This document shows positions 6,366 to 28,830 of a stretch of DNA of 64,000 bases, piece by piece. Origin of the DNA: Alphaproteobacteria bacterium (GTDB lineage Bacteria; Pseudomonadota; Alphaproteobacteria; GCA-2731375); the NCBI GenBank assembly GCA_021776235.1, contig JAJFGG010000010.1:10478-74477 (forward strand), in the 5' to 3' direction. Under the pieces are notes generated by a model that saw only the letters and a list, made by a program, of their open reading frames with translations, made no database searches and was not told the origin of the DNA. The number at the start of each line of letters is the position of its first letter. The stretch's first letter is position 1. The translations under genes and the position numbers were made by a program.

Positions 6366-6367
6366 TT

Positions 6368-11255: not shown

Positions 11256-11318
11256 GTACCTGTTTAGCCTCGCTGCCGGAAATTCGGAAAACCGTTGGAA
11301 TAGTTATCGCGGTGTCAA

Positions 11319-12281: not shown

Positions 12282-12411
12282 GAATTCTCCCTCGACCGGC
12301 AGCCTGATCCGTATCTTCGGATTGATAACTGACAAATGTCAGATTGACCCCCCTGTCGGAAAGAGTCAATCCGGCCCCGGATCATGGAAATCCGCCCAAA
12401 GCACATTCGGG

Positions 12412-13629
12412 TTAACCGCCAAGACCCTTGGCGACACCCTTCGCAAGCAGGCCGGCGATCTGATCTTCATCGTAGCCCAATTCCGCCAAAACCGCCTCGG
12501 TATCCTGGCCCAGGCGTGGCGGCGGCGTTTTGACGCCCGCGCCGCCATGGGCCATCTTGAAGCCGACGCCGGGCACCCGGTAACCGCGTCCCGTGACCTC
12601 GTCGGCGATGCAATGGATCATGCCCCGTTCCACCAGTTGGCGGCTGTCCATGATCTCGGCCAGGCCACGCACCTTGCCTGCGGGAACGCCCAGGACGCTC
12701 AGGCGTTCCTCCCATTCCAAGGCCGTGGCGCCGGCAAAGGCCTTCGCCAGCGCGTCCTGAACTTCGGCGACGAATTCGGCATTGCCTCCCCAGTCCCGAA
12801 AGCGTGGGTCCGAAAGCAGATCCGGCCGCGCGATAGCCTGGGTCACCGCCTGTGCCTGGGCCGGCGCATTGGCGGCTAGAGCCAGCAGACCGTCCGCGGT
12901 TTCAAACATGCCCGAAAATGGACTGCCGCTGGCGGCCCGGTCGCCTTGCCGCGGCGGCGGCGTCAGGCCCTGCAGAAAGGGCGCCAGCATGGGCGCCATG
13001 ATGGCGATGGCTGCGTCCAACATGGCGACGTCGATGACCTGCCCCGCCCCGGAACGTTCGCGCTGAAACAGCGCCGAAGCGATGGCGAAAGCAGCCGAAA
13101 GACCGGCCACATAGTCGATCATGGGAAAGCCGACCCGGCGCGGCCGGCCGGCATCATCCCCATTTACCGCCATCATGCCCGAGACCGCCTGAACCACATG
13201 ATCATAGGCCGGACGCTGGGCCATGGGGCCGTCCTGGCCGTAGCCCGAGATGGCGCAATAGATCAAACGGGGATTATCACGCCGCAGATGCGCCGTGCCC
13301 AGTTCCAGGCGATCCATCACCCCGGGGCGGAAATTTTCCGTCAGAACATCCGCCGTTGCCGCCAGGCGCCGGACGATTTCCTTGCCTTCGGGCGCCTTCA
13401 GGTCGACCACCACGGAACGCTTATTGGCATTCTGGGCCAGGAAGCCCGGCCCCAATCCGGCCGCAGCCAGCTCTGGATCGCCGCCGCCGAAGCGCACGAA
13501 ATCCGAAGTGCCGGGTTGTTCAACCCGTATCACCTCTGCCCCAAGCAGAGCCAATTGATAGGTGCAATAAGGACCCGCCAGCACGCGTGTTAAGTCCAGA
13601 ACACGGACGCCGGCAAATGGACGGCTCAT
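12412..13629 (-). CDS. CoA-transferase family III (CaiB/BaiF-like)
   Basis: N-terminal GVRVLDLTRVLAGPYCTYQLALLGAEVIRVE is the hallmark of family-III CoA-transferases. Start set at MSRPFAGV. The ORF track extends to 13716. Confidence 0.85.
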   Translation of the reverse strand: MSRPFAGVRVLDLTRVLAGPYCTYQLALLGAEVIRVEQPGTSDFVRFGGGDPELAAAGLGPGFLAQNANKRSVVVDLKAPEGKEIVRRLAATADVLTENFRPGVMDRLELGTAHLRRDNPRLIYCAISGYGQDGPMAQRPAYDHVVQAVSGMMAVNGDDAGRPRRVGFPMIDYVAGLSAAFAIASALFQRERSGAGQVIDVAMLDAAIAIMAPMLAPFLQGLTPPPRQGDRAASGSPFSGMFETADGLLALAANAPAQAQAVTQAIARPDLLSDPRFRDWGGNAEFVAEVQDALAKAFAGATALEWEERLSVLGVPAGKVRGLAEIMDSRQLVERGMIHCIADEVTGRGYRVPGVGFKMAHGGAGVKTPPPRLGQDTEAVLAELGYDEDQIAGLLAKGVAKGLGG

Positions 13630-13775
13630 ATCTATGCAACTCCCAACGACTCGATTAGTGAAAGGAACGGTATTGCGCCCAAGCCACTTAGCGGTATCAT
13701 GATCTGGTCTCAACACCGGCTGGCTAATTGGGATAGGCTAAGCGAAAACAAACCACTTGGGACGGGGAGATTATC

Positions 13776-15308
13776 ATGAACAAGAAAGACCCAGTAACCA
13801 TCAATCTTCGCCGCGGCGCGGCTTTTATCCTGGCGGCATCGATTGCCGCCGTATCAGGCTCCGTTCAGGCAGGGCCGAAAAATGGCGGCACCCTGACGGT
13901 AGGCCTTGAAACCGACGTCAGGGGTTTCGATACCGTCAAAGGCGGCGTTTACGGCGTCTCGGGACGTACCGTGTCCGGTGCGATCGAAGAGCCACTGCTA
14001 ATGTACTCGGCTGATGGCAAGTGGGAGCCGCATTTGGCGACATCCTGGTCCAACAGCGATGACGGCAAAACCTGGACAGTGAAACTGCGCCAAGGCGTGA
14101 AGTTCCATGATGGCAGTGATTTTGATGCCGGCGATGTTGCGGCCCATTACAACCGGATCCTGGATCCCAAAAACAAATCCCGCTCGCGCGGCTTCATTAC
14201 CGCCATCAAGGGTGCGGAAGCGGTGGATGCGCACACCGTCCGCTTCACTCTCGTGCATCCTTGGCAGGGCTTTTTAGGGACGATCGGCGGCCGCGATATG
14301 GCTTCACTGATTGAATCGCCGGAGCAAACGGCATCGGGCAAGCAGAACCGTTCGCCCATTGGCACCGGACCGTACATTTTTCAGGAATGGCGCGGCGGCG
14401 ATCGCCTCATCGTAACCAAAAACCCGAATTATTGGGACAAGGACAAGATCCACCTGGATAAGATCGTTTATCGAATTCTGCCCGACCCCCAGACCCGTTT
14501 TCAGAGTCTCAAGGCCGGCGACGTGGATCTGGTCTGGACCGACCGCGGAAGTTCGATCGTCAACGCCAAAAAAGATAAATCCATAAACGTTTTCGTCCAG
14601 GATGGCGCCGGCTCGGGCCTGACTTTGCTGAATGCCAGCAAGCCGCCGCTCGACAACGAGATCGTGCGTCAGGCGGTCCGTCACGCCATGAATCAAAAGG
14701 CCGTCAATGCAGTTTTGTGGAAGAATACAAAAGCATTTGTCGAACATCCCACTGGCTTCAAATGCGGTGATGTGAGTTACCCGTATCACAACATGGAAAA
14801 AGCCAAGGAACTGGTGAAACAGTATGGCAAACCCATCAAGTTGCAGATGATTCACACAACCACGCCCCGTGGCCGTGAATTTGGCGAAATCAACCAGCAA
14901 CTGATGAAGAAGGCGGGCATCGAGTTGGAGTTGCTACCGGTTGATCAGAACATTCTGGTCAAACGGGTTTTCACCAACGAATACATGATGAGCGGCTGGC
15001 GTGTCGCGGACTCGATCGATGTTGGCGCGCAGCTCTTCGCACTTTCCTACTCCAAGAGCCCCTACAACATCACCCGCAACAAAAAACCGGAATTGGACCA
15101 ACTGGCCCTTGGTATGCGGACAGCGAAAACCATGGAGCTCAGGGAAAAGATGCAATGCAAATTGGCCGCATATATTAACAAGACCGGCAACATGGCCTTC
15201 GGCGGCGGCAATCGTTACCACATTATCACGCAGCCGAATATCAAGGGCATGCGGGCCTTCAGCTATGGCACGCCATATGTCTGGTATCTGTGGAAGGAAA
15301 ACGGTTAG
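13776..15308 (+). CDS. ABC transporter substrate-binding protein, family 5 (system 2)
   Basis: 510 aa. Signal peptide. GGGAG-like RBS upstream. SBP_bac_5-type sequence. Confidence 0.85.
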   Translation: MNKKDPVTINLRRGAAFILAASIAAVSGSVQAGPKNGGTLTVGLETDVRGFDTVKGGVYGVSGRTVSGAIEEPLLMYSADGKWEPHLATSWSNSDDGKTWTVKLRQGVKFHDGSDFDAGDVAAHYNRILDPKNKSRSRGFITAIKGAEAVDAHTVRFTLVHPWQGFLGTIGGRDMASLIESPEQTASGKQNRSPIGTGPYIFQEWRGGDRLIVTKNPNYWDKDKIHLDKIVYRILPDPQTRFQSLKAGDVDLVWTDRGSSIVNAKKDKSINVFVQDGAGSGLTLLNASKPPLDNEIVRQAVRHAMNQKAVNAVLWKNTKAFVEHPTGFKCGDVSYPYHNMEKAKELVKQYGKPIKLQMIHTTTPRGREFGEINQQLMKKAGIELELLPVDQNILVKRVFTNEYMMSGWRVADSIDVGAQLFALSYSKSPYNITRNKKPELDQLALGMRTAKTMELREKMQCKLAAYINKTGNMAFGGGNRYHIITQPNIKGMRAFSYGTPYVWYLWKENG

Positions 15309-15360
15309 GCCTGCAAGGCGCATGAATGTGCGGCGTCCGGACAACTAGTGGACACAGCAG

Positions 15361-16314
15361 ATGCGCTATCTCGCATCCAGGCTAGGGCATTTGCTGGCGG
15401 TCTTGTTCTCCGTCACCATTCTAACCTTTGTACTCGTGAACGTCCTGCCCGGCGATATCGCCTATGATATCGCCGGGCTCGACGCTTCGGAAAAAGAGGT
15501 TCAGGCCATCCGCGAGGATCTGGGCCTCAATCGACCGGTCTTTATTCGCTACGTCGAATGGCTGGGCGGCGTCCTGACGGGCGACTGGGGACAATCCTAC
15601 CGGACCGGCGAACCGGTCCTCGAAGCGATCATGAGCCGCTTCCCGGTGTCTTTGGAGCTGGTCATCATCGCTCAGGTCATCGCGCTGCTATTAGCGGTGC
15701 CACTTGGCGTTATCAGCGCCCTTCGCGCCAATAGCCGATTTGACAGAGTGGTCGCGGTTGCCGGTTTCTTCTGTCTGTCGATACCCAATTTTATGATGGC
15801 GATCATTCTGATCTACGTCTTTGGCCTTTGGCTGAATTGGTTACCGGTGACCGGTTATGAACCCATATCCGAGGGCCTTTGGGCCAACCTTAGAAATTTT
15901 ATTCTGCCGGCCTCCAGTTTTGCTCTTGCGGAATGGACCGTGCTGGCCCGCGTCCTGCGTTCCGACATGATTGGCGTGCTGCAGGAAGACTATATCTCCA
16001 TGGCCCGGGCCAAGGGCATGCCTGTGCGGCGGATCCTATGGGTTCATGCCATGCGGCCGTCCTCATTTTCATTGATCACCCTGCTCGGCCTGCAGGTTGG
16101 CGCGTTGATCGGCGGTTCAATCATTATTGAATCGATCTTCGCGCTACCCGGCGTCGGCCGCCTGCTGGTGGGTTCGGTTTTCGCCCGCGACTTCTTGATC
16201 ATTCAAGGCTGTATCACCTTGATCGCCGTAGCCTACGTCGTAATCAATTTTGCCGTCGACGTCTGTTATGCGCTGCTTGACCCAAGGGTCAGAACGGCGA
16301 GGTCCCATGGCTAG
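15361..16314 (+). CDS. ABC transporter permease, DppB-like (system 2)
   Basis: 317 aa. Multi-TM. Conserved motif SMARAKGMPVRRILWVHAMRPS. Confidence 0.85.
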   Translation: MRYLASRLGHLLAVLFSVTILTFVLVNVLPGDIAYDIAGLDASEKEVQAIREDLGLNRPVFIRYVEWLGGVLTGDWGQSYRTGEPVLEAIMSRFPVSLELVIIAQVIALLLAVPLGVISALRANSRFDRVVAVAGFFCLSIPNFMMAIILIYVFGLWLNWLPVTGYEPISEGLWANLRNFILPASSFALAEWTVLARVLRSDMIGVLQEDYISMARAKGMPVRRILWVHAMRPSSFSLITLLGLQVGALIGGSIIIESIFALPGVGRLLVGSVFARDFLIIQGCITLIAVAYVVINFAVDVCYALLDPRVRTARSHG

Positions 16315-17218
16315 TGCGACCACCCAGGAACGGCTCGATCAGACCGGCAACCAGGAGCAGGAAAACCAGGCCGCCCAGGCAGCTGCCCGTAAGCGGGCGC
16401 GGTATGGTCCGTTTTTCTGGGTCCCCCTGATTTGGCTGGGGACCATCGTTTTTTGCGCGGCCTTTGCGGATATCCTGCCCTTACAGCCAAATGACGAGAT
16501 GGATTTCACGGCCATCAGTTCGCCGCCCTGGGAAGCCGAGGGCCATATTATGGGCACCGATCTGCAGGGCCGCGATGTGCTCTCGCGTATTATCTACGGC
16601 GCCAGGGTCTCCCTGACCGTCGGCATTGTCGCCACCGTAATCGGTATGACGTTTGGCCTGATGATCGGCTTGCTGGCTGGTTATTACCGGGGCTGGGTCG
16701 AAACGGCGATTACGCTCGGTCTGGACACTTTGCTGGCCTTGCCGGCCTTGGTGATCCTCTTGTTGGCCTCGGTAATTTTCGGCGGCAGCCTGACCGTGGT
16801 CAGCGTTTCCTTGGGATTTCTTTTGATACCGGCCTTCGCCAGGGTCAGCCGGGCCAACACGCTGAACTTCGCGCAACGGGAATTCGTCGTTGCGGCAAAG
16901 GCGATGGGCGCGCGTGATGTGCGTATCATCGTACTGGAGATATTGCCGAATGTCGTTTTGCCGGTTGCCGCGTACGCCTTGGTCGTGGTCGCCTTCGCCA
17001 TCGTGGTCGAGGGCGCCTTGAGTTTCCTGGGCTTAAGTGTCCCTTCGCCGATGCCAAGCTGGGGCGGCATGATCGCCGAGGGGCGCGAGTCCCTGGGCGA
17101 AACGCCGCATATCAGCTTCATTCCGGCAACGGTGATGTTCCTGACCGTGCTGTCCTTCAATCTGGTTGGAGATGCTCTGCGCAGCAAACTCGCCGACCTG
17201 CGCGAGAGCGCGCTTTAG
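16307..17218 (+). CDS. ABC transporter permease, DppC-like (system 2)
   Basis: Start at MASATTQERL overlaps the previous stop by 8 nt. Multi-TM. Conserved motif AAKAMGARDVRIIVLEILPN. Confidence 0.85.
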   Translation: MASATTQERLDQTGNQEQENQAAQAAARKRARYGPFFWVPLIWLGTIVFCAAFADILPLQPNDEMDFTAISSPPWEAEGHIMGTDLQGRDVLSRIIYGARVSLTVGIVATVIGMTFGLMIGLLAGYYRGWVETAITLGLDTLLALPALVILLLASVIFGGSLTVVSVSLGFLLIPAFARVSRANTLNFAQREFVVAAKAMGARDVRIIVLEILPNVVLPVAAYALVVVAFAIVVEGALSFLGLSVPSPMPSWGGMIAEGRESLGETPHISFIPATVMFLTVLSFNLVGDALRSKLADLRESAL

Positions 17219-17230
17219 AGCGTGTCGCCG

Positions 17231-18226
17231 TCAATCCCCGGTCAATGGGAAATGGCAGGCCAGGGTATGGCCGGGGGCTATCTCTTCCAGCGGCGGGACG
17301 ACCTGGGTACAGAGATCCTGCGCCTTCGGGCAGCGGCTATTGAAGCGGCAGCCCGAAGGCGGGTTGATCGCGGACGGTAATTCACCTTCTTTCATGGCGA
17401 TGGGCTGAGGTGGGCGGCCCGGATCGGCCTCGGGAATGGCACTCAACAGGGCGGCGGTATAGGGATGCGCCGGCTGACGGTAGAGAGTGTCGGAATCGGC
17501 AAGCTCGCAAATTCGGCCCATATACATCACCGCAACCCGGTCGCAGACCACCTTGACCACGGAAAGGTCATGGGAAATGAACAGCATGGTCAGGTGATAG
17601 CGTTCCTTCATATCGAGAAGCAGATTGATGATCTGCGCCTGGATCGAGACGTCCAGCGCCGATACAGGTTCATCGCAGATCAGCATCGATGGTTCCGAGA
17701 CCAGCGCCCTGGCAATGCTGATACGCTGACATTGCCCGCCCGAGAACTGAAACGGCCGCCTGTCCAGTGAGGTTTCGGGGTCGAGGCCAACCGCCTCCAG
17801 AACCTCGCGAACCCGCGCCTTGCGCTCCTCCGGCGTGCCTTCGCCCATGACCACCAGCGGCATCTCGACGATATCCGAGACCTTTCGGCGTGGATTGAGC
17901 GAGGAAATCGGGTCCTGAAATATCATCTGGAACTGTTTTCGCTGGCGCCGCAGCTGACTGCCATTGAGCGCGGCGAGATCGACGCCGTTCAAGATGACTT
18001 TGCCCGAGGTCGGCGCGGGCAACTGCATCACGGCCCGCGCGGTGCTCGATTTGCCACAGCCTGACTCACCGACCAGGCCCAGCGTCTCACCCGGATAGAT
18101 GTCAAAACTGACACCGGAGACCGCATGCACCACTTCCCGTTTACCGAGACGAAATTCCATCACCATGTCCTCGACCCGCAGCACGGGATCGGGCATCGAC
18201 GTTTGTTGTGGTATTGCCGACGGCAT
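17231..18226 (-). CDS. ABC transporter ATP-binding protein, OppF-like (system 2, opposite strand to SBP/permeases)
   Basis: Walker [10 protein letters not shown]. Signature FSGGQCQR. Walker [13 protein letters not shown]. Start at ATG 18226-18224 forms a TAATG overlap with the upstream ATPase stop. An alternative start lies at 18196. Confidence 0.8.
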   Translation of the reverse strand: MPSAIPQQTSMPDPVLRVEDMVMEFRLGKREVVHAVSGVSFDIYPGETLGLVGESGCGKSSTARAVMQLPAPTSGKVILNGVDLAALNGSQLRRQRKQFQMIFQDPISSLNPRRKVSDIVEMPLVVMGEGTPEERKARVREVLEAVGLDPETSLDRRPFQFSGGQCQRISIARALVSEPSMLICDEPVSALDVSIQAQIINLLLDMKERYHLTMLFISHDLSVVKVVCDRVAVMYMGRICELADSDTLYRQPAHPYTAALLSAIPEADPGRPPQPIAMKEGELPSAINPPSGCRFNSRCPKAQDLCTQVVPPLEEIAPGHTLACHFPLTGD

Positions 18227-19212
18227 TATGCTGCCGTCTCCGCCACCGGCACGCCAACAGGCCGCCAACAGGCAAATGCGTGTTCGGACCCGACTTCGGA
18301 CGCCAAAACCGGTTCCTCTTCGCGGCACCGTTCCTCGGCCCTGGTGCAGCGCGGCGCAAAGCGGCAACCGGGCGGCGGATAGATCAAATTGGGCGGCTGC
18401 CCGCTGATGGTTCGCAGGCGGGCATGGGTTGGATGGTCAAGATGGGGAATACTCTCCATCAACGCCTGGGTGTAGGGCATTCGGGTATTGCCGAACAAGT
18501 CTTTGGTCGAGGATCGCTCGACCATCTTGCCGGCATACATCACTGCTATTTCATCTGTCCGCCCGGCCACCACGCCAAGATCATGAGTAATCAGGATCAT
18601 CGACATATTTCGTTCGCGCTGCTGTTCGCGCAGCAGATCCAGGATGCCCGATTGCACAGTGACATCCAGCGCCGTCGTCGGTTCGTCCGCGATCAGCAGC
18701 TTGGGTTCGCAGGCCAGCGCGATGGCAATTGCCACCCGCTGCCGGATGCCGCCTGATAGCTGATGCGGGTACTGATCGATGCGGCGTTCCGGCGCGGAAA
18801 TGCCAACTGCCCGCAACAACTCAACCCCGCGGTCGTGCGCTTCGGCCTTTGTCATGCCAAGATGATGGATCAGGGTTTCCGAGATCTGAGCCCCAACTTT
18901 CATCACCGGATTAAGCGAGGTCATGGGATCTTGGAAAATCATCGCCATATCCCGGCCCCTGATGGCGCGCAACTGCTTCTCGCCAAGAGCCCGCAGGTCC
19001 TGACCGTTGAACAGTATTCGGGCCCGCTCGGAAATCTTGGCGCTTGCGGGCAGCAGCCCCATCAAGGTACGGCACAGGATCGTCTTGCCACAGCCGGATT
19101 CTCCGACCAGACCCAGCGTGACCCCTTGTTTCAACGTAAACGACACGCCGTCGACGGCACGGACAAGACCTCGTGCCGTCATAAAATGGGTGTGCAGGTT
19201 CTCGACCCGCAA
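18226..19212 (-). CDS. ABC transporter ATP-binding protein, OppD-like (system 2)
   Basis: Walker A GESGCGKT. Signature LSGGIRQR. Walker [13 protein letters not shown]. Confidence 0.85.
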
Positions 19213-19423
19213 AAGCAGTTCCTGTTCGATGTGACCCCCCGGTATTGTGGGGAAAGTCTAGCCGAATAGGCGGGGGATGGAAATAGTCGGCGCGCGGAAG
19301 CCGGTCGCGAAAAATGCTAAGTCTGAGCGACCGCGGCCCCGGATTTTTTCGGTGCCCACCACCGCAATCTACCCTATCGTTAGGGCGATCCAATTTTTTC
19401 AAATCCTTGGGAGAGCGCCGAAT

Positions 19424-20320
19424 ATGTCCAACAGCCCCAGCCTTCGCGATCTGTTACAGGGCCCCGAAATCGTCGTGGCGCCGGGGGTCTATGACGCCTT
19501 TGGTGCCCTTATGGTGGAACGGGCCGGCTTTGCCGCAGCTTATCTGTCTGGCGCTTCAATTGCCTATACCCGCTTTGGCCGGCCGGACCTGGGCCTGGTG
19601 GGCATGGACGAGGTCGCCGCTGTTCTCTCGGCCATCGGCGAGCGGGTCCAGGTGCCGTTGATCGTCGATGCCGATACCGGCTATGGCAACGCCTTGAACG
19701 TGATCCGCACCGTCAAACTATTCGAGCGGAATGGCGCTGCCATTATCCAGTTGGAAGATCAGGACCTGCCCAAACGTTGCGGCCATCTGGCCGGCAAAAC
19801 CCTGGTGCCGGCGGCCGAAATGGTCGGCAAGATCAAGGCCGCCCTGGATGCCCGGCGCAGCGCGGACACCCTGATCATGGCCCGTACCGATGCTATCGCG
19901 GTCGAAGGCCTGGAAGCCGCGTTGGAGCGGGCCGAACGTTACCGCGAAGCCGGCGCCGACATCCTGTTCGTGGAAGCACCCCGGGACCTCGAGGAAATGC
20001 ATGCCGTCACCAGCCGCCTGGGCGGCCAAGTGCCCTTGCTGGCCAATATGGTGGAGGGCGGCAAGACCCCCATCCTGCCGGCCCGGGAATTACAGAACAT
20101 CGGCTATTCCATGGTCATCTTCCCGGGCGGCCTGGCCCGCGCGGTAGGTCATCTGATGGGCCGCTATCTTGACAGTCTGCGAAGCCACGGCGAAACCGGG
20201 CCTTTCCGTGACCAGATGATCGACTTTGACGAGATGAATGCGCTGATCGGCACGCCGGAAATGCTAGCCAGCGGCAACCGTTACGATGCGGCCAATTTTA
20301 CGAACGAGGATGAGCGCTGA
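19424..20320 (+). CDS. isocitrate lyase/PEP mutase superfamily enzyme (methylisocitrate-lyase-like, KRCGH motif)
   Basis: Start MSNSPSLRD has a GGAGAG RBS 10 nt upstream. Active-site loop DQDLPKRCGHLAGK matches the ICL/PrpB K-[KR]-C-G-H signature. 299 aa. Confidence 0.8.
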   Translation: MSNSPSLRDLLQGPEIVVAPGVYDAFGALMVERAGFAAAYLSGASIAYTRFGRPDLGLVGMDEVAAVLSAIGERVQVPLIVDADTGYGNALNVIRTVKLFERNGAAIIQLEDQDLPKRCGHLAGKTLVPAAEMVGKIKAALDARRSADTLIMARTDAIAVEGLEAALERAERYREAGADILFVEAPRDLEEMHAVTSRLGGQVPLLANMVEGGKTPILPARELQNIGYSMVIFPGGLARAVGHLMGRYLDSLRSHGETGPFRDQMIDFDEMNALIGTPEMLASGNRYDAANFTNEDER

Positions 20321-20398
20321 TCCAATTCCGCCTTGCCATGATGCCCGCAGAAAACTATCAGACCGGCGTCTTGCCGTGACACCGCGAAAGGCCAAGCC

Positions 20399-21817
20399 AT
20401 GAGTATTCTACCCGCCAATGGCAAACGGTTCGAGGTTCAGGTGCCCGTCGCGATCATTGGCGGCGGCGCCTGCGGCCTGGTCGCCGCCCTAACCCTGGCC
20501 GATGCCGGCATTGCGCCGCTGGTGTTGGAACGGGATGCCATGCCCACGGGTTCCACCGGATTATCATCGGGCATGATTCCAGCCTGTGGCACCGCCATGC
20601 AGCGTGCCGAAGGGGTCGAAGATACAGTCGAAATGCTGGTCCATGACATCCAGGCCAAGGCCCAGGATCAGGCCGACCCCGAAATCGTGCGGGCCGTCGC
20701 CGCGGCCTCCGGCCCCAGCGTGGAATGGCTGGTGGGGCGCCATGGGGTCGAACTGACACTGGTCGGCGGTTTCCTCTATCCGGGCTTTTCGGCCCTGCGC
20801 ATGCACGCCCCGCCCTCGCGCCAGGGGGCGGACCTGATGGCAGGCCTGTTGCGCGCCGCGGAAAACGCCGGCATCGACATCATGACCAATGCCAGGGTCA
20901 CCGATCTGGTGGCCGAGACCGATGGCCGCGTCGTCGGCCTGTGCCTGGAGCGGCCCGATGGAACAAGCGAGGAAATCGGCTGCCAGGCCCTGATCCTGGC
21001 TTGCAACGGTTTTGCCGGCAATCCGGCCATGGTGCGGCAGCATATCCCCGAAATGGCGGCGGCGGAATATTTCGGCCATCCTGGAAATCAAGGTGAGGCC
21101 GTCATCTGGGGCACGGCCCTGGGGGCGGCGGCGCGTCATATGAGTGCCTATCAGGGCCACGGGTCCGTCGCCACGCCCCACGGCATTTTGATAACCTGGG
21201 CCCTGATGATGAACGGCGGGTTCCAGATCAATAATCTCGGCCAACGCTTTTCCAACGAACACCACGGCTATTCAGAACAAGCGGTGGAAGTACTGGCCCA
21301 ACCGGACGGAATTGCCTGGCTGGTCTTCGACGACCGGCTGTTAGCGCTGGGTCACCAGTTCGAAGAGTTCAACCTTGCAGTAGCCGCGGGCGCCATCCGC
21401 CACGGCGCCGACAGCGCGGCCCTTGCCCAGGCCATCGACGTACCCGCCGGCGCCCTGGCCCGGACCCTGGCCGAGACAAATGCCCATGCGTTGGGAGATA
21501 GCAGCGACCGCTTTGGCCGTGATTTTACCAGCCAACCGGCATTGCAAGCGCCCTACCATGCCATCAAGGTTAGCGGCGCACTGTTCCATACCCAGGGGGG
21601 CCTGGAAATCGATGCGGGGGCAAGGGTGCTGCGCCCCGACGGCAGCCCCCTGCCGAACCTGTTTGCTGGCGGCGGGGCTGCATGCGGTATATCGGGCAGC
21701 CAGGTTTGGGGCTACCTTTCCGGCAACGGCTTGCTCACCGCGGTCAATCTCGGCCGCCTGGCGGGGCAGACGGCAGCCACCTATATCGCCGCAATCGAAA
21801 AGGGGTATGCGACATGA
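20399..21817 (+). CDS. FAD-dependent oxidoreductase (fumarate reductase / succinate dehydrogenase flavoprotein-like, FAD_binding_2 type)
   Basis: N-terminal Rossmann motif VAIIGGGACGLVAALTLA. C-terminal FAGGGAACGISG. 472 aa. Confidence 0.75.
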   Translation: MSILPANGKRFEVQVPVAIIGGGACGLVAALTLADAGIAPLVLERDAMPTGSTGLSSGMIPACGTAMQRAEGVEDTVEMLVHDIQAKAQDQADPEIVRAVAAASGPSVEWLVGRHGVELTLVGGFLYPGFSALRMHAPPSRQGADLMAGLLRAAENAGIDIMTNARVTDLVAETDGRVVGLCLERPDGTSEEIGCQALILACNGFAGNPAMVRQHIPEMAAAEYFGHPGNQGEAVIWGTALGAAARHMSAYQGHGSVATPHGILITWALMMNGGFQINNLGQRFSNEHHGYSEQAVEVLAQPDGIAWLVFDDRLLALGHQFEEFNLAVAAGAIRHGADSAALAQAIDVPAGALARTLAETNAHALGDSSDRFGRDFTSQPALQAPYHAIKVSGALFHTQGGLEIDAGARVLRPDGSPLPNLFAGGGAACGISGSQVWGYLSGNGLLTAVNLGRLAGQTAATYIAAIEKGYAT

Positions 21818-22641
21818 TTCAGGAACAGCAACGTAAGGCCGATGATTTCGCCACCCTGCACGCCGGACCGGAGACCTTTGTCATCCCAAATCCCTGGGAC
21901 ATCGGCACCACGAAGATTCTGACCGGCATGGGCTTCAAGGCGCTGGCGACGACATCGGCCGGCTATGCCTTCAGCCGGGGCCACATGGACGGCGTCGTTG
22001 GCCGGGACGAGATGTTGGCCCATGCCGGCGAACTTGTAGCGGCGACCCCCCTGCCCGTATCCGCCGATCTGGAAAACGGCTATGCCGACAGCCCGGATGG
22101 GGTGGCGGAAACCATTCGCCTGGCAGCGGGCACCGGCCTGGTCGGCGCCTCGATCGAGGATTTCACCGGTGACCGGGACGCGCCGATCTACGAAATAGGT
22201 CTGGCGGTGGAACGTATCGAGGCGGCCGTGGCCGCGGCACGGGAACAGAGCTTTCCTTTTGCCCTGACCGCCCGGGCGGAAAACTTCATTCGCGGCCGGC
22301 CCGACCTGGACGATACCTTGAAACGGCTGACAGCCTTTGAAGCGGCCGGGGCCGATGTTCTCTATGCGCCGGGCCTGCGCAGTCTGGAAGATATCCGCAC
22401 GGTCTGTCAGGCGGTCAGAAAGCCGGTCAACGTGGTCATGGGTTTGACAGGCAGCGATATGACCACGGCGCAATTGGCCGAGGCCGGAGTGCGCCGCATA
22501 AGCCTGGGCGGTGCTCTGGCCCGCGCCGCCCTGGGGGCTTTCATGAAGGCGGCCAGGGAAATCCAGGCCGGCGATTATTCCTTCATCGACAACGCCGCTG
22601 CATTTGCCGATATCTCGGCCCACATGCGGGCGCAAGAATAG
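21814..22641 (+). CDS. isocitrate lyase/PEP mutase superfamily protein (second paralog, lacks the KRCGH cysteine)
   Basis: Start MIQEQQ forms an ATGA overlap with the flavoprotein stop. ICL/PEPM-like fold motifs: PNPWDIGTTKIL, SADLENGYAD, GASIEDFTG. Confidence 0.75.
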   Translation: MIQEQQRKADDFATLHAGPETFVIPNPWDIGTTKILTGMGFKALATTSAGYAFSRGHMDGVVGRDEMLAHAGELVAATPLPVSADLENGYADSPDGVAETIRLAAGTGLVGASIEDFTGDRDAPIYEIGLAVERIEAAVAAAREQSFPFALTARAENFIRGRPDLDDTLKRLTAFEAAGADVLYAPGLRSLEDIRTVCQAVRKPVNVVMGLTGSDMTTAQLAEAGVRRISLGGALARAALGAFMKAAREIQAGDYSFIDNAAAFADISAHMRAQE

Positions 22642-22699: not shown

Positions 22700-24352
22700 T
22701 TAGCCTGCCGGCCCGAAAGACTCCGTGTGGATACAGCCCGAGGCGATGCCTTGGCGCTCCAGGTCCGTTTGGAGGCCGGCCATGAAACGGGTAGGGCCGC
22801 ATAGGAAGTAGTGAGTTTCGGCGTCATCAATCAGGCTCGCCAGAAGCGTGCCGTCAACGCGTCCCTTTCTGTCATAGTCAATGCCGGCCCTATCTTCGGG
22901 ACGCGGCCTGCTATAGGCGACATGGACCAGAATGTTGGGCCGTCGCGCCGCCAGTTTGCGCACCTCATGGGCCAGCGGATGATGACCGCCATCTCGCGCG
23001 ACATGGACGAACCAGACCGGGCGATCGCTGTTTTCGGCAGCTAGAGTGTGCAGCATGCTGACCATCGGTGTCATACCGACACCAGCGCTCACCAGCGCGA
23101 CCGGACATTTGCTGCATGACAGAATGAAGGCGCCGGCCGGTTTGCGGCTATCGAGGATGGCCCCCGTCTCGACGTGATCGTGCAGGTAACGTGAGGCAAG
23201 CCCCTGTGGATCGCGTTTGACAGTTATCCGGTAACGTTTGGTGCTCGGCGCGCCGGAAAGGGAATATGTGCGGCGAACCGGTTCGGTGAAATCCGGCGCA
23301 TCAAGCTCTAGCGGCAGATGCTGCCCGGACTCAAAGGTAGGAAGCGGGCCCGCATCCCGTGCCTCAAAGACAAAAGACGTCACATCTTCGCTCTCGCGGG
23401 TCTTCTCGATCAGGCGCAGGGAGCGCACGGCTTCCGCATCCGCGTCCCAGCGCAGAGGAACCGCGGCCGGCAGCTCGACAATCGCCTCGATATCAATGTT
23501 CACCAGACGCCGGGCGCCGGGAATGCGGGCCACGGCATCCGAGTCCCAATCAATTGTTGCCCGACCCGTCAATTGGAGCAGGCTGCCCGTTTCGAAATCC
23601 ACGAAAAGCAATCCCACGCGAGGCTCAAGAACAAGATTACCGATGGTGTTGAAATGGTTGTTGCCGGCATAGTCTGGGAATACCAGGTGCGCCTCGTCAA
23701 CGACCCGAATGAAGCCCCGTTCGCCACCCCTGTGCGAGGCATCCATGCCAAATGTCGCGTCTTCACCTTGATGGCGGTAGCCACTTGCAATGAAGAAGGT
23801 ATCGGCGGATTCAATCCAGGCCCGCTGCGAGGGCGTCAGGTGCGCGTTTCTCACAGGGCTTCCAGCCTGTTCGCCTTCGACCCGTCGCCAGGCGCGCTCG
23901 CGAATATACTGCGGGCAGTTGCCGAAGCTCTGTACCACGCCGCAGACGATGCCGCCGGCAGCGGGACTATCCAGAATGCGGCCGTTCATCCGGTTGCGCC
24001 GGCGGGTTGAGAGTTCGATCCCGAGGATGCCGATGTCAGCGCCCGGCACGAAAGCCTCTTCCAGGGCATCGCCCGTGACCGGCGTGCCGTCGATAACAAG
24101 GGATTTCGGGTCCGGTGAGGTCACAAAGGCTTCCGGCCCTGTCAGCAAGGTCGCCCACGGCCGCCCCGTCCCGTCACGGGCAGCGACAATCAGGTATGGC
24201 AACGCGGTATGAAAGGCACGGTGTTCGTCGGGAAGGTGGCTGCGCACCACCTTGCGGGCCCAGGCCTCGATGTCGCGGACACCAAGGCGTTCCTGAACCT
24301 GCCGTTCACCTGGATGAAACGGCGAACTGTCTTGGTTCCCAGCCCCGGACAT
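22700..24352 (-). CDS. fusion oxidoreductase: pyridoxamine-5'-phosphate-oxidase-like FMN-binding domain + ferredoxin-NADP-reductase-like FAD/NAD(P)-binding domains
   Basis: The N-terminal ~250 aa are PNPOx-like. The C-terminal part carries the FNR FAD motif RRTYSLSG and the NAD(P) motif GVGMTPMVSML. No 2Fe-2S cysteine cluster is present. Confidence 0.7.
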   Translation of the reverse strand: MSGAGNQDSSPFHPGERQVQERLGVRDIEAWARKVVRSHLPDEHRAFHTALPYLIVAARDGTGRPWATLLTGPEAFVTSPDPKSLVIDGTPVTGDALEEAFVPGADIGILGIELSTRRRNRMNGRILDSPAAGGIVCGVVQSFGNCPQYIRERAWRRVEGEQAGSPVRNAHLTPSQRAWIESADTFFIASGYRHQGEDATFGMDASHRGGERGFIRVVDEAHLVFPDYAGNNHFNTIGNLVLEPRVGLLFVDFETGSLLQLTGRATIDWDSDAVARIPGARRLVNIDIEAIVELPAAVPLRWDADAEAVRSLRLIEKTRESEDVTSFVFEARDAGPLPTFESGQHLPLELDAPDFTEPVRRTYSLSGAPSTKRYRITVKRDPQGLASRYLHDHVETGAILDSRKPAGAFILSCSKCPVALVSAGVGMTPMVSMLHTLAAENSDRPVWFVHVARDGGHHPLAHEVRKLAARRPNILVHVAYSRPRPEDRAGIDYDRKGRVDGTLLASLIDDAETHYFLCGPTRFMAGLQTDLERQGIASGCIHTESFGPAG

Positions 24353-24465
24353 TGATTGGTCTCCCCACCAGCTTCCCGGCGGAACGCAGAAGCCAGCACT
24401 GCATCTGCACCGCCTTGCTCCCCCGCCCTTTCATTTGCAGCATTGACAAAGTCTAGGCACCGCAA

Positions 24466-24768
24466 TTGCTGAAGTCCATGCATGCCAGCTATGGCCGTTT
24501 CATCTCTGAACGCTATCGCAACAGTTCCCTGGACGCGACGGTACCGGCAAACATTCGGCACGACATCACCGGCGCCTTCGGTCCGCGCCGCGTTCGACGA
24601 ACCGCACTGGTCAAAGGGGACCTTGCGGCGGGACGTCTTTTCGCGCCGTTGGATATATCCTTGCCGATCGAGGCAGCCTACTATGTGGTCGCGCCAGAAC
24701 AGACTGCGGATCTACCAAAGATCAAGGCGTTCCGGGAATGGCTGATTACAACCCTCGCAACAACGTAA
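24466..24768 (+). pseudogene. remnant of a LysR-family (GcvA-like) regulator: only the C-terminal ~70 aa of the effector domain
   Basis: TALVKGDLAAGRLFAPLDISLPIEAAYYVVAPEQTADLPKIKAFREWL matches the C-terminal consensus of GcvA-type LysR regulators. There is no HTH or N-terminal domain. Only 114 bp separate it from the divergent oxidoreductase gene. Confidence 0.6.
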
Positions 24769-24796
24769 TACGAGGCCGCCCTGACAGGATATAGCC

Positions 24797-25159
24797 ATGC
24801 CGTCGACACAAATTGGGCTTAAACGCGTTTACGAAACGGCTTCCACTGATGACGGATTACGACTGCTTGTCGAACGCCTTTGGCCACGTGGACTTACCAA
24901 GGCCGACGCCGCGATCGACCACTGGGTAAAGGATATTGCTCCAACCCCTACGCTGCGCACCTGGTATGGACACCGCCCGGAACGTTGGCAAGAGTTCCGC
25001 GCGCGCTATCGCCTGGAACTGGACGAAAACCAGGCAGCAATTAAGTCCCTGCGGGAATTGTGTGCGGGACAACAGGTAACATTCGTCTTTGCAGCCAAAG
25101 ATGTACTTCGCAATGGGGCCGTCGTGCTCAAGGAATATATTGACGAGAAAGGCGGTTGA
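24797..25159 (+). CDS. DUF488 (YeaO-like) family protein
   Basis: 120 aa. KRVYETASTDDGLRLLVERLWPRGLTKADAAIDHWVKDIAPTPTLRTWYGH is the conserved DUF488 core. Confidence 0.8.
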   Translation: MPSTQIGLKRVYETASTDDGLRLLVERLWPRGLTKADAAIDHWVKDIAPTPTLRTWYGHRPERWQEFRARYRLELDENQAAIKSLRELCAGQQVTFVFAAKDVLRNGAVVLKEYIDEKGG

Positions 25160-25303
25160 GGCTTGGCCATTGCCGACGGATGAGCCTTTTCCCTATCGAT
25201 CCGATAAATCGCCAACGGCCAACATCATTGATACTGACAATCATTATCAATAGCATTCGAATTTGCGCATCGGCACATGATGGGCCACATGGGGAGACGA
25301 CGC

Positions 25304-26695
25304 ATGGCGGAACGATTTGACGCGATCATCATTGGCACGGGTCAAGCGGGACCATCGCTGGCGCAACGGATGACCGGCGAAGGCATGAAAGTGGCAATTA
25401 TCGAGCGCAAACTGTTTGGCGGCACCTGTGTCAACGTTGGCTGTATACCGACCAAGACCCTGGTCGCCAGCGCGCGTGCCGCCTACATGGCGCGGCGGGG
25501 CGGCGACTTCGGTGTCGTTATTGATGGCGACATCAAGGTCGACATGAAGGCGGTCAAGGCCCGCAAGGACAGTGTGGTTCTGCAATCGAACCAGGGCGTC
25601 ACGAACTGGCTGAAGAATATGGATAACCTGAGCGTTTTTGAGGGCCACGGCCGTCTGGAAAGCGCCAATGCCGTCAGCGTGGACAGTGAAGCTGGCAGCG
25701 AACGGCTGGAAGCCGATAAGATCATCCTCAATGTCGGCGGCCGCGCCCTGGTGCCTGAAATGCCGGGCCTCGACGACATCGGCTATTACACCAACGCCAA
25801 TATAATGGACGTGGATTTTCTGCCCGAGCACCTGGTGATCATAGGTGGCAGTTACATCGGTCTGGAGTTCGCCCAGATGTACCGCCGCTTCGGCAGCCGC
25901 GTCACCGTCGTACAAAAGGGCGACCGGTTGATCCCACGCGATGATCCGGAGATTGGCGAAGCCGTCAGGGACATTCTCGAGAACGAAGGTATAGATATCA
26001 GATTGCAGGCGGAATGCGTTGGCTTCGCGAAGCGTGGCGGGCAGGTGGTGGTCAGTGCCAGCTGTGCGCCGGGCGATGAAGAGATTGTCGGCTCGCATGT
26101 GCTGCTGGCGGTGGGGCGTATCCCCAACACGGACGACCTGGGGCTGGCCGCGGCGGGCGTTGCAACCAACAGCCGCGGCTTTATCACGGTTGATGATCAA
26201 CTGGCCACCAACGTGCCGGGCATCTGGGCAATTGGCGATGCCAATGGCCGGGGCGCCTTTACCCATACCTCCTACAATGACTACGAAATACTCGCTGCCA
26301 ATATGTTCGACAATGATCCCAGGCGCGTTTCAGACCGCATTACGGCATACGGACTATTTATTGATCCGCCATTGGGCCGGGTTGGCATGACGGAGGCGGA
26401 GGTGCGCGCCTCCGGACGGCCGGCGTTGGTGGGAAAGATGATGATGACGCGTGTCGGCCGGGCCCGCGAACGCAGCGAGACCCAGGGTTTCATGCAAATC
26501 TTCATCGATGCCGAAAGCCATAAAATTCTGGGCGCGGCGATCCTCGGCATCGGTGGCGACGAGATCATCCACGCGTTGCTGGATGTTATGTACGCGGACG
26601 CGCCCTATACGGTGATACAACGCGCCATGCACATCCATCCCACTGTCACGGAATTAATCCCAACCATGCTGGGTGACCTGAAGCCGTTGGAATAG
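25304..26695 (+). CDS. class-I pyridine nucleotide-disulfide oxidoreductase (FAD, redox-active CVNVGC)
   Basis: Start MAERFDAIIIG has a GGGGAG RBS. Motifs GTGQAGPSLA and GGTCVNVGCIPTK give the redox-active disulfide. C-terminal dimerisation-domain His in HIHPT. Confidence 0.85.
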   Translation: MAERFDAIIIGTGQAGPSLAQRMTGEGMKVAIIERKLFGGTCVNVGCIPTKTLVASARAAYMARRGGDFGVVIDGDIKVDMKAVKARKDSVVLQSNQGVTNWLKNMDNLSVFEGHGRLESANAVSVDSEAGSERLEADKIILNVGGRALVPEMPGLDDIGYYTNANIMDVDFLPEHLVIIGGSYIGLEFAQMYRRFGSRVTVVQKGDRLIPRDDPEIGEAVRDILENEGIDIRLQAECVGFAKRGGQVVVSASCAPGDEEIVGSHVLLAVGRIPNTDDLGLAAAGVATNSRGFITVDDQLATNVPGIWAIGDANGRGAFTHTSYNDYEILAANMFDNDPRRVSDRITAYGLFIDPPLGRVGMTEAEVRASGRPALVGKMMMTRVGRARERSETQGFMQIFIDAESHKILGAAILGIGGDEIIHALLDVMYADAPYTVIQRAMHIHPTVTELIPTMLGDLKPLE

Positions 26696-26757
26696 ACGGT
26701 ATCGGAGACAAAAGGCGCCCTATACAGCGCTGAATTGACCAAATTGGGGATCCATCA

Positions 26758-27798
26758 GTGAATTCCTTGACACTTATCCTGGCGGCCGGGTTGGCCGCCG
26801 CTGTCGGTTTCGCCGCACACCGGGCCAGTCTTTGCTCGGTCCGTGCGGTCGAGGAAATCCTGACCACCCGACGGGCCTTTATGCTCGCCGGATTTATCAA
26901 GTCAGCGTTGTGGGTCGTTGCTGTTACGCTGTTTGCGGCCTGGGCATTTGCCGATAATTTTGTGCCGGCAAGTATCTGGCGGCTATCCGTTCTTTCCGTC
27001 GCCGGTGGCGCCATATTCGGCGTTGGCGCCGCCCTGAACGGCGGCTGCGCCTTCTCCACGTTGACGCGGTTTGGCAGCGGCGATGCCGGTATGGTGATGA
27101 CATTGGCCGGATTTGTCGCCGGCGCGGGTATATATGATCTTCTTGCCGCCAAAGGCCTCGCGGCGCCGCCTGTCGAGACCACGGCATTCCTGACAACACC
27201 AGCGACCTGGCGCATACCTATTACGCTGGCGCTCGTCACCTGGATGGCCTGGGAGATGGTGAAACTGCGCCGCCGCACCGATGGCCAAAGCTGGCGCCAA
27301 CGCATGCTCGCCTCCCGCTATCGTTTGTCTACGGCGGCCGTACTCATGGGTATCAGCAGTGGGCTCTTGTATGTCCTGATCGGCGTGTGGCCGTATACCC
27401 GCCTGTTCAGCCAGACAGCGCGACATATCGCCACCGGTGCACCGACCCCGCCGGCTATTCTCTGGCTGCTGTTCGCGGCCCTGCTTGGCGGCATCATATT
27501 GTCCGCCTGGCAGGGCCGCCGCTTCAGCGGGCAATGGCGCCCGCGGCCAAAGTGGATCAGATATGCCATCGGCGGCATCGTAATGGGCTTGGGCGCAGCC
27601 ATGGTACCAGGCGGGAACGACGTGCTGATACTGCATGCCATACCGTCGCTATCGCCGCATGCGGTACCGGCATTTCTAGCGATGCTTTTTGGTATCGCAG
27701 GGTCGTTGGCAGTGATGCGGGCGTTTGGCAGACAGATCCCGCGAATTGATTGTGGCGGTGACCTTTGTACCGCTGACGCAGACAGACCGGAGCCGTGA
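26758..27798 (+). CDS. YeeE/YedE-like (sulfur-transport family) inner-membrane protein
   Basis: 346 aa. Two-repeat polytopic membrane protein. Conserved Cys in RASLCS and LNGGCAFS. Family assignment made from memory of the YeeE/YedE pattern. Confidence 0.5.
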   Translation: MNSLTLILAAGLAAAVGFAAHRASLCSVRAVEEILTTRRAFMLAGFIKSALWVVAVTLFAAWAFADNFVPASIWRLSVLSVAGGAIFGVGAALNGGCAFSTLTRFGSGDAGMVMTLAGFVAGAGIYDLLAAKGLAAPPVETTAFLTTPATWRIPITLALVTWMAWEMVKLRRRTDGQSWRQRMLASRYRLSTAAVLMGISSGLLYVLIGVWPYTRLFSQTARHIATGAPTPPAILWLLFAALLGGIILSAWQGRRFSGQWRPRPKWIRYAIGGIVMGLGAAMVPGGNDVLILHAIPSLSPHAVPAFLAMLFGIAGSLAVMRAFGRQIPRIDCGGDLCTADADRPEP

Positions 27799-27886
27799 TT
27801 GTCATCGCCGCCGATACCCATAGGCCACGATATTGCCGCTTTTGCCGGCTCTAATTCTTTCCGCAACAGACGCAATTGAGAGAATG

Positions 27887-28672
27887 CTACCGCTCCATCG
27901 ATACTTTCGACGGTGGTAGGCCCATCACTTTACCGAAGGCAGCCGAGAAGGCGCTGGCGCTTCGGTAGCCATGCTGTTGCGCAACGCGAGAAATGGGTTC
28001 GCCCTGTGATAGCGCCTCAAGGGCGTTGTGGAAACGGATACGCTGGCGCCATCGATTAAAACTTATCCCCAGATCGCGCTCGAACAACCGGGCCAGCGTC
28101 CGTGTAGAGGCACCGGCAACCTCGGACCAGGCGTCCAGCGTCCGACGGTCCGAAGGATCGGCAAGCAGTTCGGCGCATAACCGTTGCAACCTTGCATCCT
28201 TGGGCAGTGGGATGTTCAGCGATAATTCGCGGGCCCGGCCAATCTCCTGTTCGATCATTTGCGCTATGAGGCCGCCCCGGCTGTCAGGTTCATACACGAC
28301 CGGCTCTTCGCTCAGGGCCAGGATCAATTCCCGCAGCAGATTGGAGACCGCGACAACAGTCAACGCGCGGGGCCGGCCATGGGTTGCCTTTGCATCGATA
28401 TACAACGTGCGCATATGGACCGCGCCATGCATGCTGACCGCGTGATAGGTTCCGGCGGGAATGTAAACGGCGCTGTCCCGGGGCACGATCCAAGCTTCCT
28501 GTTCGGTTCGCAACCGCATGATCCCGTCCGTCGCATAGAGCAGTTGATCGCGCTGGTGTTCATGAAGTGGAATGACAAACCCGTCGGCAAAGCTTTTGGA
28601 CATCATCCCAATTGCCTGGGGTAAATCCTGATAATCCCGTGGGTCCGTACTGCGAGTTTTCTGGGCAGTCAT
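27887..28672 (-). CDS. AraC-family transcriptional regulator with N-terminal cupin domain
   Basis: Start MTAQK is preceded by AGGAA. Cupin region VIPLHEHQRDQLLYATDG. C-terminal AraC HTH TRTLARLFERDLGISFNRWRQRIRFHNA and YRSASAFSAAF. Confidence 0.8.
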   Translation of the reverse strand: MTAQKTRSTDPRDYQDLPQAIGMMSKSFADGFVIPLHEHQRDQLLYATDGIMRLRTEQEAWIVPRDSAVYIPAGTYHAVSMHGAVHMRTLYIDAKATHGRPRALTVVAVSNLLRELILALSEEPVVYEPDSRGGLIAQMIEQEIGRARELSLNIPLPKDARLQRLCAELLADPSDRRTLDAWSEVAGASTRTLARLFERDLGISFNRWRQRIRFHNALEALSQGEPISRVAQQHGYRSASAFSAAFGKVMGLPPSKVSMER

Positions 28673-28830
28673 GATTCCTGCATCTTCAATGGAACGGATT
28701 TTGGCATAAACACGACGAAATTTGGCATGACATCGCATTTCCGCCAAGTGTAAATTGACATGATCGACCAATATGCGTGCCTTACGCGATTCTCCGGGAG
28801 GTGCGCGCCCATATAGGGGACTGCACGCTC

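Follow-up and report, generated by a model that had tools for sequence, protein, structure and literature searches.

A window of 64,000 nucleotides (64 kb; contig JAJFGG010000010.1) from an uncultured marine Rhodospirillaceae-like alphaproteobacterium carries three consecutive genes, which we name A (a lyase gene with a KRCGH loop), B (an FAD_binding_2 flavoprotein gene) and C (a gene for a Cys-less protein of the ICL/PEPM fold). The best explanation of this triplet is that it forms one co-transcribed catabolic operon of composite origin. A and B would be the lower-pathway pair of an operon that leads from cyclic amides to alkylmalates, and C would have joined them in this lineage only; the chance that this explanation holds, with the pathway it implies, appears to us about even. 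The triplet itself is a modest object, a lineage-specific and partly eroding catabolic operon. It is chiefly of value as a way into a modular, uncharacterised catabolic operon for which we found no published function. That wider operon is frequent among marine, plant-associated and soil Alphaproteobacteria and extends to the haloarchaea.

Gene structure of the triplet

The reading frames of A, B and C are all intact (Table 1). The start of A at 19424 is backed by full-length 298-aa orthologues and is preceded, 8 nt upstream, by the Shine-Dalgarno sequence GGGAGAG (19409-19415). A 78-nt spacer separates A from B, and the stop of B overlaps the start of C. The two ICL/PEPM-fold proteins, A and C, share only 28% identity. 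An earlier note made from the letters of this stretch had described the triplet and its domains, a cysteine loop in A that is missing from C, and the ATGA overlap; all of this is borne out, the domain calls by Pfam.

Orthologues of A and B in a wider operon

B was used to anchor a survey of 80 homologous loci (numbered Lnnn) from species-representative genomes. Relatives of B of about 60% identity, without C, occur in Thalassobaculum, Hwanghaeella, Ferrovibrio, BAL199, Rhodobacteraceae, Hyphomicrobiales and some Burkholderiales, with an orthologue of A about 4.4 kb upstream of B. In L077 (1-9400) the genes between A and B encode Hydantoinase_B, Hydantoinase_A and an isochorismatase-family hydrolase, and an archaeal-type LeuC/LeuD-like hydratase ('LeuD/DmdB family') and a GntR/UTRA regulator come before them. 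The commonest order is (GntR), LeuC-like, LeuD-like, A, HyuB, HyuA, isochorismatase, B, which is complete in 20 of the 80 loci and partial in many; shorter architectures, LeuCD-A-B and A-B alone, also exist among them. Azospirillum oryzae (L174, plasmid NZ_CP054616, 440608-452114) has the same genes in one annotated operon that follows a Liv-type ABC transporter. When the L077 proteins were compared with the window by tblastn, only A and B matched, over their full length and at 62% and 59% identity; no hydratase, ring-opening or amidase gene was detected in the 64 kb. By this similarity, by the identical active-site positions of A and by the invariant residues that B has in common with its family, A and B are orthologues of the wider operon's lyase and flavoprotein.

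Several genes of the wider operon are exchanged for others between lineages. In L088 (3711-10404) and L013, two Polysacc_deac_1 (PuuE-like CE4) proteins replace HyuB/HyuA; the best PDB match of the L088 proteins is PuuE allantoinase (E=7e-34), and an enzyme of the PuuE fold is a documented cyclic-imide hydrolase (PMC11424739). On Haloferax volcanii pHV4 (L175, 570870-580252) a 44%-identical homologue of B is found with LeuCD, an isochorismatase and an amidohydrolase-family protein. There, a CoA-transferase and an HMG-CoA-lyase-like protein stand in place of A, a layout that would fit a citramalate-type intermediate cleaved as the free acid or as a CoA ester. The closest solved relatives of the wider operon's isochorismatase are cysteine hydrolases, RutB and biuret hydrolase. 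The non-orthologous replacements in L088/L013 and Haloferax suggest that what is conserved is a set of functions, namely ring opening, amide hydrolysis, a flavin step, hydration by LeuCD and cleavage of a 2-hydroxy-2-alkyl dicarboxylate. Two of these steps have been swapped for unrelated enzymes, ring opening among three kinds of hydrolase, and cleavage between a free-acid lyase and a CoA-transferase with a CoA-ester lyase; such replacements would pin down which reactions take place and in what order. Literature searches on the operon and on cyclic-imide gene clusters found no publication on the wider operon.

A separate arrangement is seen in L069 (7636-11592), from a metagenome-assembled genome (MAG) of the Stellaceae, in which the genes that follow A-B encode an NMT1-type ABC transporter, a bacterial-type LeuC/LeuD, a Cys-less PEPM-family protein and a 2-oxoacid dehydrogenase E1 subunit. 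This Cys-less protein (loop EDQLRGKKQPGDSG) is not the same as C; with it, A-B has come to stand beside a Cys-less superfamily member a second time, independently.

Gene A encodes a putative alkylmalate lyase

A aligns unambiguously with E. coli PrpB. It shares the fold and retains the catalytic loop (K117-R-C-G-H121), the metal-site acids D55, D82, D84 and E111, equivalents of Arg158 and Glu188 (R154 and E184), the hydrophobic pocket for the C2-methyl group (F182, I232 and P234) and an equivalent of Arg241 (Arg239). Its top NCBIfam match is prpB (1e-86), and several 2-methylisocitrate lyases are among its best PDB matches. Such likeness would suit an ordinary PrpB, in a locus belonging to the methylcitrate cycle and with B as a succinate-type dehydrogenase. 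However, A falls below the cut-offs of both PrpB models (TIGR02317, 290.3 bits against 354.4; NF008455, 247.3 against 353), and two of the three PrpB residues that we take to hold the succinate moiety (Thr212, Arg241 and Arg270 in E. coli numbering) are substituted in all 58 orthologues of A, Thr212 by Val210 and Arg270 by Phe268. The gene context is also at odds with a methylcitrate cycle: none of prpC, prpD, acnD and prpF is among the genes annotated across the window, the first three were not found in the related loci with annotated genes either, and at other loci A is partnered by LeuCD-like hydratases and amidohydrolases. The arginines that would bind fumarate or succinate are, moreover, missing from B. 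A standard methylcitrate cycle, which the earlier note had set against its own proposal, is rejected as an account of A on cut-offs, residues and gene context, and we regard it as very improbable.

The motifs NMVEGGKTP and FVEAP in A match those of petal death protein (PDP, 1ZLP; NMIEGGKTP and FVEAP), a broad-specificity (2R)-alkylmalate/oxaloacetate lyase, rather than those of PrpB, and so does Phe268; the KxCGH loop is common to both proteins. PDP differs from A in having no equivalent of Arg241, and is a plant protein without operon context. Overall, A is roughly as near to PrpB and PDP as it is to fungal dimethylmalate lyase (E=1e-48). We predict that A is a PDP/dimethylmalate-lyase-like C-C lyase of the ICL/PEPM superfamily and not PrpB; most simply, it would be a 2-alkyl- or 2,3-dialkylmalate lyase giving pyruvate. 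A LeuCD/DmdAB-type hydratase adjoins the A orthologues in most full operons and is absent from the window. The 26 positions of A that were inspected as its predicted active site are the same in marine and full-operon orthologues (n=58), save one variable surface position, and it is therefore almost certain that A acts on the same substrate in the window as in the full operon.

Gene B encodes a flavoprotein with an altered active site

The best PDB matches of B are flavocytochrome c fumarate reductases (E=2e-59), and the FAD_binding_2 fold is shared with the soluble fumarate reductase flavocytochrome c3, with 3-ketosteroid dehydrogenases (KstD) and with tricarballylate dehydrogenase (TcuA). No NCBIfam model reaches its cut-off with B: the flavocytochrome c model TIGR01813 scores 237.3 against 285.45, and the TcuA models score 142 against 369 and 95 against 373. 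No TcuB-like gene adjoins B, unlike in the TcuA system, and B has no haem or FMN domain. Flavocytochrome c3 His365 and His504 are kept as H254 and H397. In contrast, the catalytic acid Arg402 is replaced by Tyr291 in an ungapped alignment, Glu378 by Trp267, and the carboxylate-binding Arg545 by Tyr439, the last assignment being less certain as it lies beside a three-residue gap. Tyr291 and Tyr439 are both invariant across 15 homologues. In the 1JRZ mutant chain position 402 is a tyrosine, against arginine in the other chains, and Tyr291 aligns with it; this Arg402Tyr mutant is reportedly an essentially inactive fumarate reductase.

Since invariant tyrosines occupy the positions of both Arg402 and Arg545, B is predicted not to be a fumarate reductase; the label 'fumarate-reductase-type' that it had been given holds for the fold and not for the active site. 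Aspartate oxidase and TcuA were rejected together with fumarate reductase, on the active-site arginines and on the cut-offs of the hidden Markov models (HMMs). In KstD-type desaturases the catalytic residues are tyrosines, and the enzymes act next to a carbonyl. B appears to be a cytoplasmic, FAD-only member of the flavocytochrome c/KstD/TcuA superfamily and is probably a C-C desaturase.

Gene C belongs to a stand-alone subfamily

The loop of C, SIEDFTGDRDAPIYEI, lacks K-x-C-G-H, and its gating loop, EDFTGDRDAPIY, is short and without cysteine. The position of the lyase Glu188 is taken by proline. With the Lys-Cys-His loop gone and proline at this position, both the cysteine acid and the glutamate base are missing, so C should be unable to work as an ICL-type lyase. 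The metal/oxyanion site is retained (D59, D85, E87, E115, R154, N206 and R237), and D85, E87, E115, D116, R154, N206 and R237 are invariant. C matches 4LSB_A with E=4e-88 over residues 5-269 (60-65% identity) and DFA0005 (2ZE3) with E=1e-42, which clearly places it, by similarity, in the widespread stand-alone 4LSB/DFA0005 subfamily. No function is known to us for DFA0005 or for 4LSB, a structural-genomics protein labelled 'lyase/mutase', and a literature search on the two found none. C is predicted to be a Mg2+/2-oxoacid-binding enzyme of the ICL/PEPM fold, and its chemistry is most likely a decarboxylase- or hydrolase-type enolate reaction on a 2-oxoacid.

The Pfam domain name PEP_mutase, the label 'phosphonomutase' given by PDB depositors to some relatives of C, and a weak match of A to CPEP phosphonomutase (231 bits) raise the idea that A and C serve phosphonate metabolism, as phosphoenolpyruvate (PEP) mutase, carboxy-PEP (CPEP) mutase or phosphonopyruvate hydrolase. 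The scores argue otherwise, all lying far under the cut-offs: A reaches 231 against 420, 111 against 320 and 100 against 374 with the PEP mutase, phosphonopyruvate hydrolase and CPEP mutase equivalogs (231 being the CPEP phosphonomutase score), and C reaches 47 against 420 and 41 against 320 with mutase and hydrolase models. A also carries the KRCGH loop of a lyase, and no phosphonate genes were seen at any annotated locus. A role in phosphonate metabolism has, in our estimate, next to no probability.

A second survey, anchored on C, took in 80 more distant relatives (51-71% identity); at 41 of these loci one side had 3 kb or more of flanking sequence. A or B was near C in 0 of the 80 loci, C there being a lone gene, and no neighbour family occurred in more than 4 of these metagenomic loci. 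C in the window is best described as a lineage-specific addition to A-B that would work independently of them.

Conservation and erosion of the triplet

In the eleven closest loci of the B-anchored survey, all of them from marine or brackish Rhodospirillaceae or alphaproteobacterial MAGs, B is 78-87% identical and the order A-B-C is kept, one locus being truncated. Look-ups anchored on C added L172, L173 and L176, and the distinct related A-B-C loci number 12, with identities in C as low as 71%. In pairwise comparison with seven relatives, dN/dS came to 0.07-0.15 for A, 0.12-0.15 for B and 0.12-0.17 for C; each of the three genes is under purifying selection. These values, together with the order kept in 12 loci, show that the triplet is not due to chance.

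The junction between B and C is always tight (-4 to +22 nt). The ATGA overlap is present in the window, L002, L006, L007, L011 and L176, about half of the loci, and elsewhere 3-22 nt lie between the two genes, a Shine-Dalgarno-like GGAG being visible in several of these gaps; in L003 and L172 the end of the called B gene lies 11 nt ahead of C. C has stayed intact in four relatives; in three of these, pieces of a deleted B or A+B adjoin it. In L170, A and C are kept and between them lies a 37-codon fusion in which the first ~26 codons of B are joined to its last few (6891-7004). L081 and L082 have C only, and just upstream of it are pieces of A, from its 5' end, and of B, from its 3' end (7796-7988 in L081), and in L171 C follows a remnant of the 3' end of B (6860-6979). 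An isochorismatase adjoining C in L171 was considered and is not the wider operon's amidase. In the abundant L083 type, the order is A-C-GMC oxidoreductase, without B. The A-B-C arrangement is therefore ancestral to the marine clade, B or A+B having been lost repeatedly while C stayed, which argues against an obligate B-C pair.

The earlier note had named conservation of the triplet as a unit as a check on its proposal, and the common order in 12 related loci agrees with this; the unit is nevertheless not fixed, given its absence around the 80 distant C genes and the relatives that have dropped B or A+B. Its further step, from the ATGA overlap to stoichiometric co-expression, is not sustained: about half of the loci keep the overlap, and relatives keep C without B. 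A 4-nt overlap is the commonest junction type in compact bacterial operons and no sign of a stoichiometric complex.

These patterns bear on whether the triplet could be self-sufficient, with C hydrating the product of B in place of LeuCD, or decarboxylating an oxaloacetate-type product of A, and with the ATGA marking a functional B-C pair. C is present exactly in the lineage whose locus has no LeuCD-like genes, its junction with B is invariably short, and its adjacency to A survives without B in the L083 type; L069 also has its own Cys-less PEPM protein beside LeuCD near A-B, and PA4872 (3b8i), the nearest Cys-less member of known function, is reportedly an oxaloacetate/3-methyloxaloacetate decarboxylase. 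Even so, an intact C outlives the deletion of A+B (L081) and of B (L170, L171), with the remnants still visible, and its 51-71% identical relatives stand alone, no neighbour recurring beside them in 80 loci. C is, besides, only remotely similar to PA4872 (E=1.5e-6), and to our knowledge no hydratase occurs in the ICL/PEPM superfamily. Self-sufficiency of the triplet is, on balance, unlikely.

Alternatively, A-B might be a decaying leftover without present function in this genome, only C being of importance. The independent deletion of B or A+B in several close relatives would agree with decay, as would the upstream pathway steps missing at the locus. Against this stand the window genes themselves, which are full length, free of frameshifts and stops, and complete in their catalytic residues, along with the low dN/dS of A and B (0.07-0.15) and the retention of the pair in 12 loci, and we consider loss of function decidedly unlikely.

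Further genes accompany the triplet in some relatives. A 172-aa PAS_5-like open reading frame (ORF) is inserted antisense between A and B in L007 (7304-7822, -), L008, L009 and L170 (6221-6736, -), so that A and B stand about 700 nt apart there; this sub-lineage might have acquired it as a sensor or regulator. A GMC oxidoreductase gene overlaps the 3' end of C by 4 nt, and is thereby translationally coupled to it, in L007 (10237-11865) and in L083-L085 (8822-10450), with two copies each in L008 and L009 and none in the window. A copper amine oxidase follows C in L081 (8918-11365), with an acetyltransferase after it, and in L002 (9049-10974), which is the window's closest relative; the window itself lacks the gene.

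A proposed pathway from cyclic amides to alkylmalates

In the scheme of substrates, step order and catalytic activities that we infer for the full operon, a small cyclic amide or imide would first be opened by HyuB/HyuA in an ATP-dependent reaction, by PuuE-like CE4 hydrolases or by an amidohydrolase, and the isochorismatase-family cysteine hydrolase would remove the remaining amide. B would then desaturate the resulting alkyl-substituted succinyl compound, the LeuCD/DmdAB-type Fe-S hydratase would hydrate the double bond, and A would split the 2-alkylmalate into pyruvate (or a close 2-oxoacid) and a short carboxylic acid. Of this operon the lineage of the window retains just B and A, beside Opp/Dpp importers that would bring the substrate in and an acyl-CoA synthetase and CoA-transferase, either of which would activate the acid product of A. 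The hydratase step may be supplied by a gene outside the window, or may not be needed for the imported compound; that C fills the gap is less likely than either. The general idea of the earlier note, a route for a substituted dicarboxylate with a dehydrogenation and a dimethylmalate-type lyase, finds agreement in the operons that place orthologues of A and B with a LeuCD/DmdAB-type hydratase. It overlooked that the window lacks the hydratase that should act between B and A.

That absence is the first of several points that weigh against a cyclic-amide-to-alkylmalate route, as the chain is broken in the 64-kb window between B and A. The ring-opening genes are absent as well, by tblastn with the L077 proteins. 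No assayed enzyme of this operon type, and no paper on one, was found. As both dicarboxylate-binding arginines are missing in B, its substrate may be a neutral ring (succinimide or lactam) and not a free acid, which would put B before ring opening. There is no electron-transfer partner for B nearby. A is retained where B has been lost (L083, L170) and hence does not strictly depend on B. Finally, Opp/Dpp binding proteins usually take peptides, opines and metal chelates, not simple dicarboxylates.

The nearest known counterpart of the proposed lower steps is DmdAB with Dml in the nicotinate fermentation of Eubacterium barkeri, in which a LeuCD-family hydratase gives a 2,3-dialkylmalate and a KxCGH lyase splits it into pyruvate and a short acid; orthologues of A likewise adjoin a 'LeuD/DmdB family' hydratase. 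The window differs in having no hydratase, and the wider operon has a cyclic-amide hydrolase, an amidase and a flavoprotein where the Dml route has a B12 mutase and an isomerase. For the upper steps, the full operon resembles known routes of cyclic amide and imide catabolism (imidase with half-amidase; N-methylhydantoinase with N-carbamoylsarcosine amidase; PuuE allantoinase) in pairing a ring-opening hydrolase with an amidase. The known cyclic imide pathways end at succinate, without flavoprotein, hydratase or lyase, and their hydrolase and amidase genes have no counterpart in the window.

A more specific proposal, and in our view a long shot, is that A and B mark an undescribed alkyl-succinimide/maleimide pathway, with the marine C as an iron-sparing stand-in for the Fe-S hydratase. 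Alkyl-substituted succinimides and maleimides are monopyrrole fragments from photo-oxidised chlorophylls, bacteriochlorophylls and haems. The steps would be ring opening, a maleamate-type amidase, B turning saturated rings or acids into unsaturated ones, a DmdAB-like hydratase and a PDP-like lyase acting on ethyl- or methyl-malates. If true, this would give the plant petal death protein a physiological substrate.

The proposed cyclic-amide-to-alkylmalate pathway is testable in cultivable hosts, namely Azospirillum, Sulfitobacter and Haloferax volcanii. For annotation, the present assignments would correct 'methylisocitrate lyase' for A, 'fumarate reductase flavoprotein' for B and 'PEP mutase' for C.

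Genomic neighbourhood

The CoA-transferase, acyl-CoA synthetase and ABC importer genes that the earlier note had seen beside the triplet are present and are conserved in relatives (Table 1). Importer 1 adjoins A-B-C in L002, L004, L010, L011 and L176 and adjoins C alone in L081; importer 2 adjoins A in L003, L008, L009 and L083; and the acyl-CoA synthetase adjoins A in L007 and importer 1 in L081. The window holds the fullest version of a fluid island made up of synthetase, TetR, importers, CoA-transferase and A-B-C. L176 probably shows the ancestral site, in which importer 1 and A-B-C are followed by yacG-rng-maf-infA.

Table 1 Positions of the triplet, its marked sites and the neighbouring genes in the window
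Feature	Position	Strand	Remarks
Gene A	19424-20320	+	298 aa; Pfam PEP_mutase 1e-45, ICL 1e-16
Gene B	20399-21817	+	472 aa; Pfam FAD_binding_2 2e-49
Gene C	21814-22641	+	275 aa; Pfam PEP_mutase alone, 4e-76
Catalytic gating loop codons of A, K117-R118-C119-G120-H121	19772-19786	+	
Codon for Tyr291 of B (Shewanella flavocytochrome c3 Arg402 position)	21269-21271	+	Ungapped alignment to 1d4c, 1jrz
ATGA overlap, stop of B and start of C	21814-21817	+	
Divergent oppD1-A intergenic region	19213-19423	.	Boxes GGAAATAGTCGG at 19279-19290 and CTACCCTATCGTTA at 19369-19382
Importer 1, Opp/Dpp-type ABC	13776-19212	.	Pfam and NCBIfam
Importer 1 substrate-binding protein	13776-15308	+	
Importer 1 permeases	15361-17218	+	
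Importer 1 ATPases, divergent from A	17231-19212	-	
Linked block	3708-13716	-	CoA-transferase III, importer 2, TetR, acyl-CoA synthetase
CoA-transferase III	12412-13716	-	
Importer 2, Opp-type	6368-12335	-	
TetR	5709-6365	-	
Acyl-CoA synthetase	3708-5597	-	

A promoter and terminator consensus scan of the locus gave nothing convincing, the result being no better than for shuffled sequence. The boxes GGAAATAGTCGG and CTACCCTATCGTTA are kept across six orthologous oppD1-A spacers that are elsewhere divergent. They are probably promoter or operator elements, and may represent divergent -10 elements or an operator.

Importers 1 and 2 are side-by-side paralogues (6368-19212). The convergent split of importer 1, with the binding protein and permeases on one strand and the ATPases on the other, is kept in relatives except L006, in which importer 1 and A-B-C all lie on one strand. 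The best structural relatives of the importer binding proteins are 5U4O (a substrate-binding protein of unknown function), HbpA, the agropinic-acid protein AgaA, NikA, DppA and AccA; a substrate assignment from these was rejected, as they are too distant and too mixed.

Between C and rng the window has ~10.6 kb of extra genes (22700-33100) that are absent from the otherwise syntenic L176, and this segment is probably an insertion. It encodes a PNPOx-FNR fusion, a pyridine-nucleotide disulphide oxidoreductase, a sulphur-transport protein, an AraC regulator, an MFS transporter and a PAS hybrid histidine kinase. The PNPOx-FNR fusion gene (22700-24352, -; 550 aa) lies convergently downstream of C and combines a PNPOx-like FMN domain with a flavohaemoprotein-type FAD/NAD reductase module, without a globin domain; its match to NF009805 (244 bits) covers the reductase half only. 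Elsewhere in the window, two stretches (47461-49655 and 57404-59188) have a low G+C content of 0.46-0.49, against about 0.6, and a third-position GC of 0.43-0.49. One of them encodes a TPR protein, and both were probably acquired horizontally.

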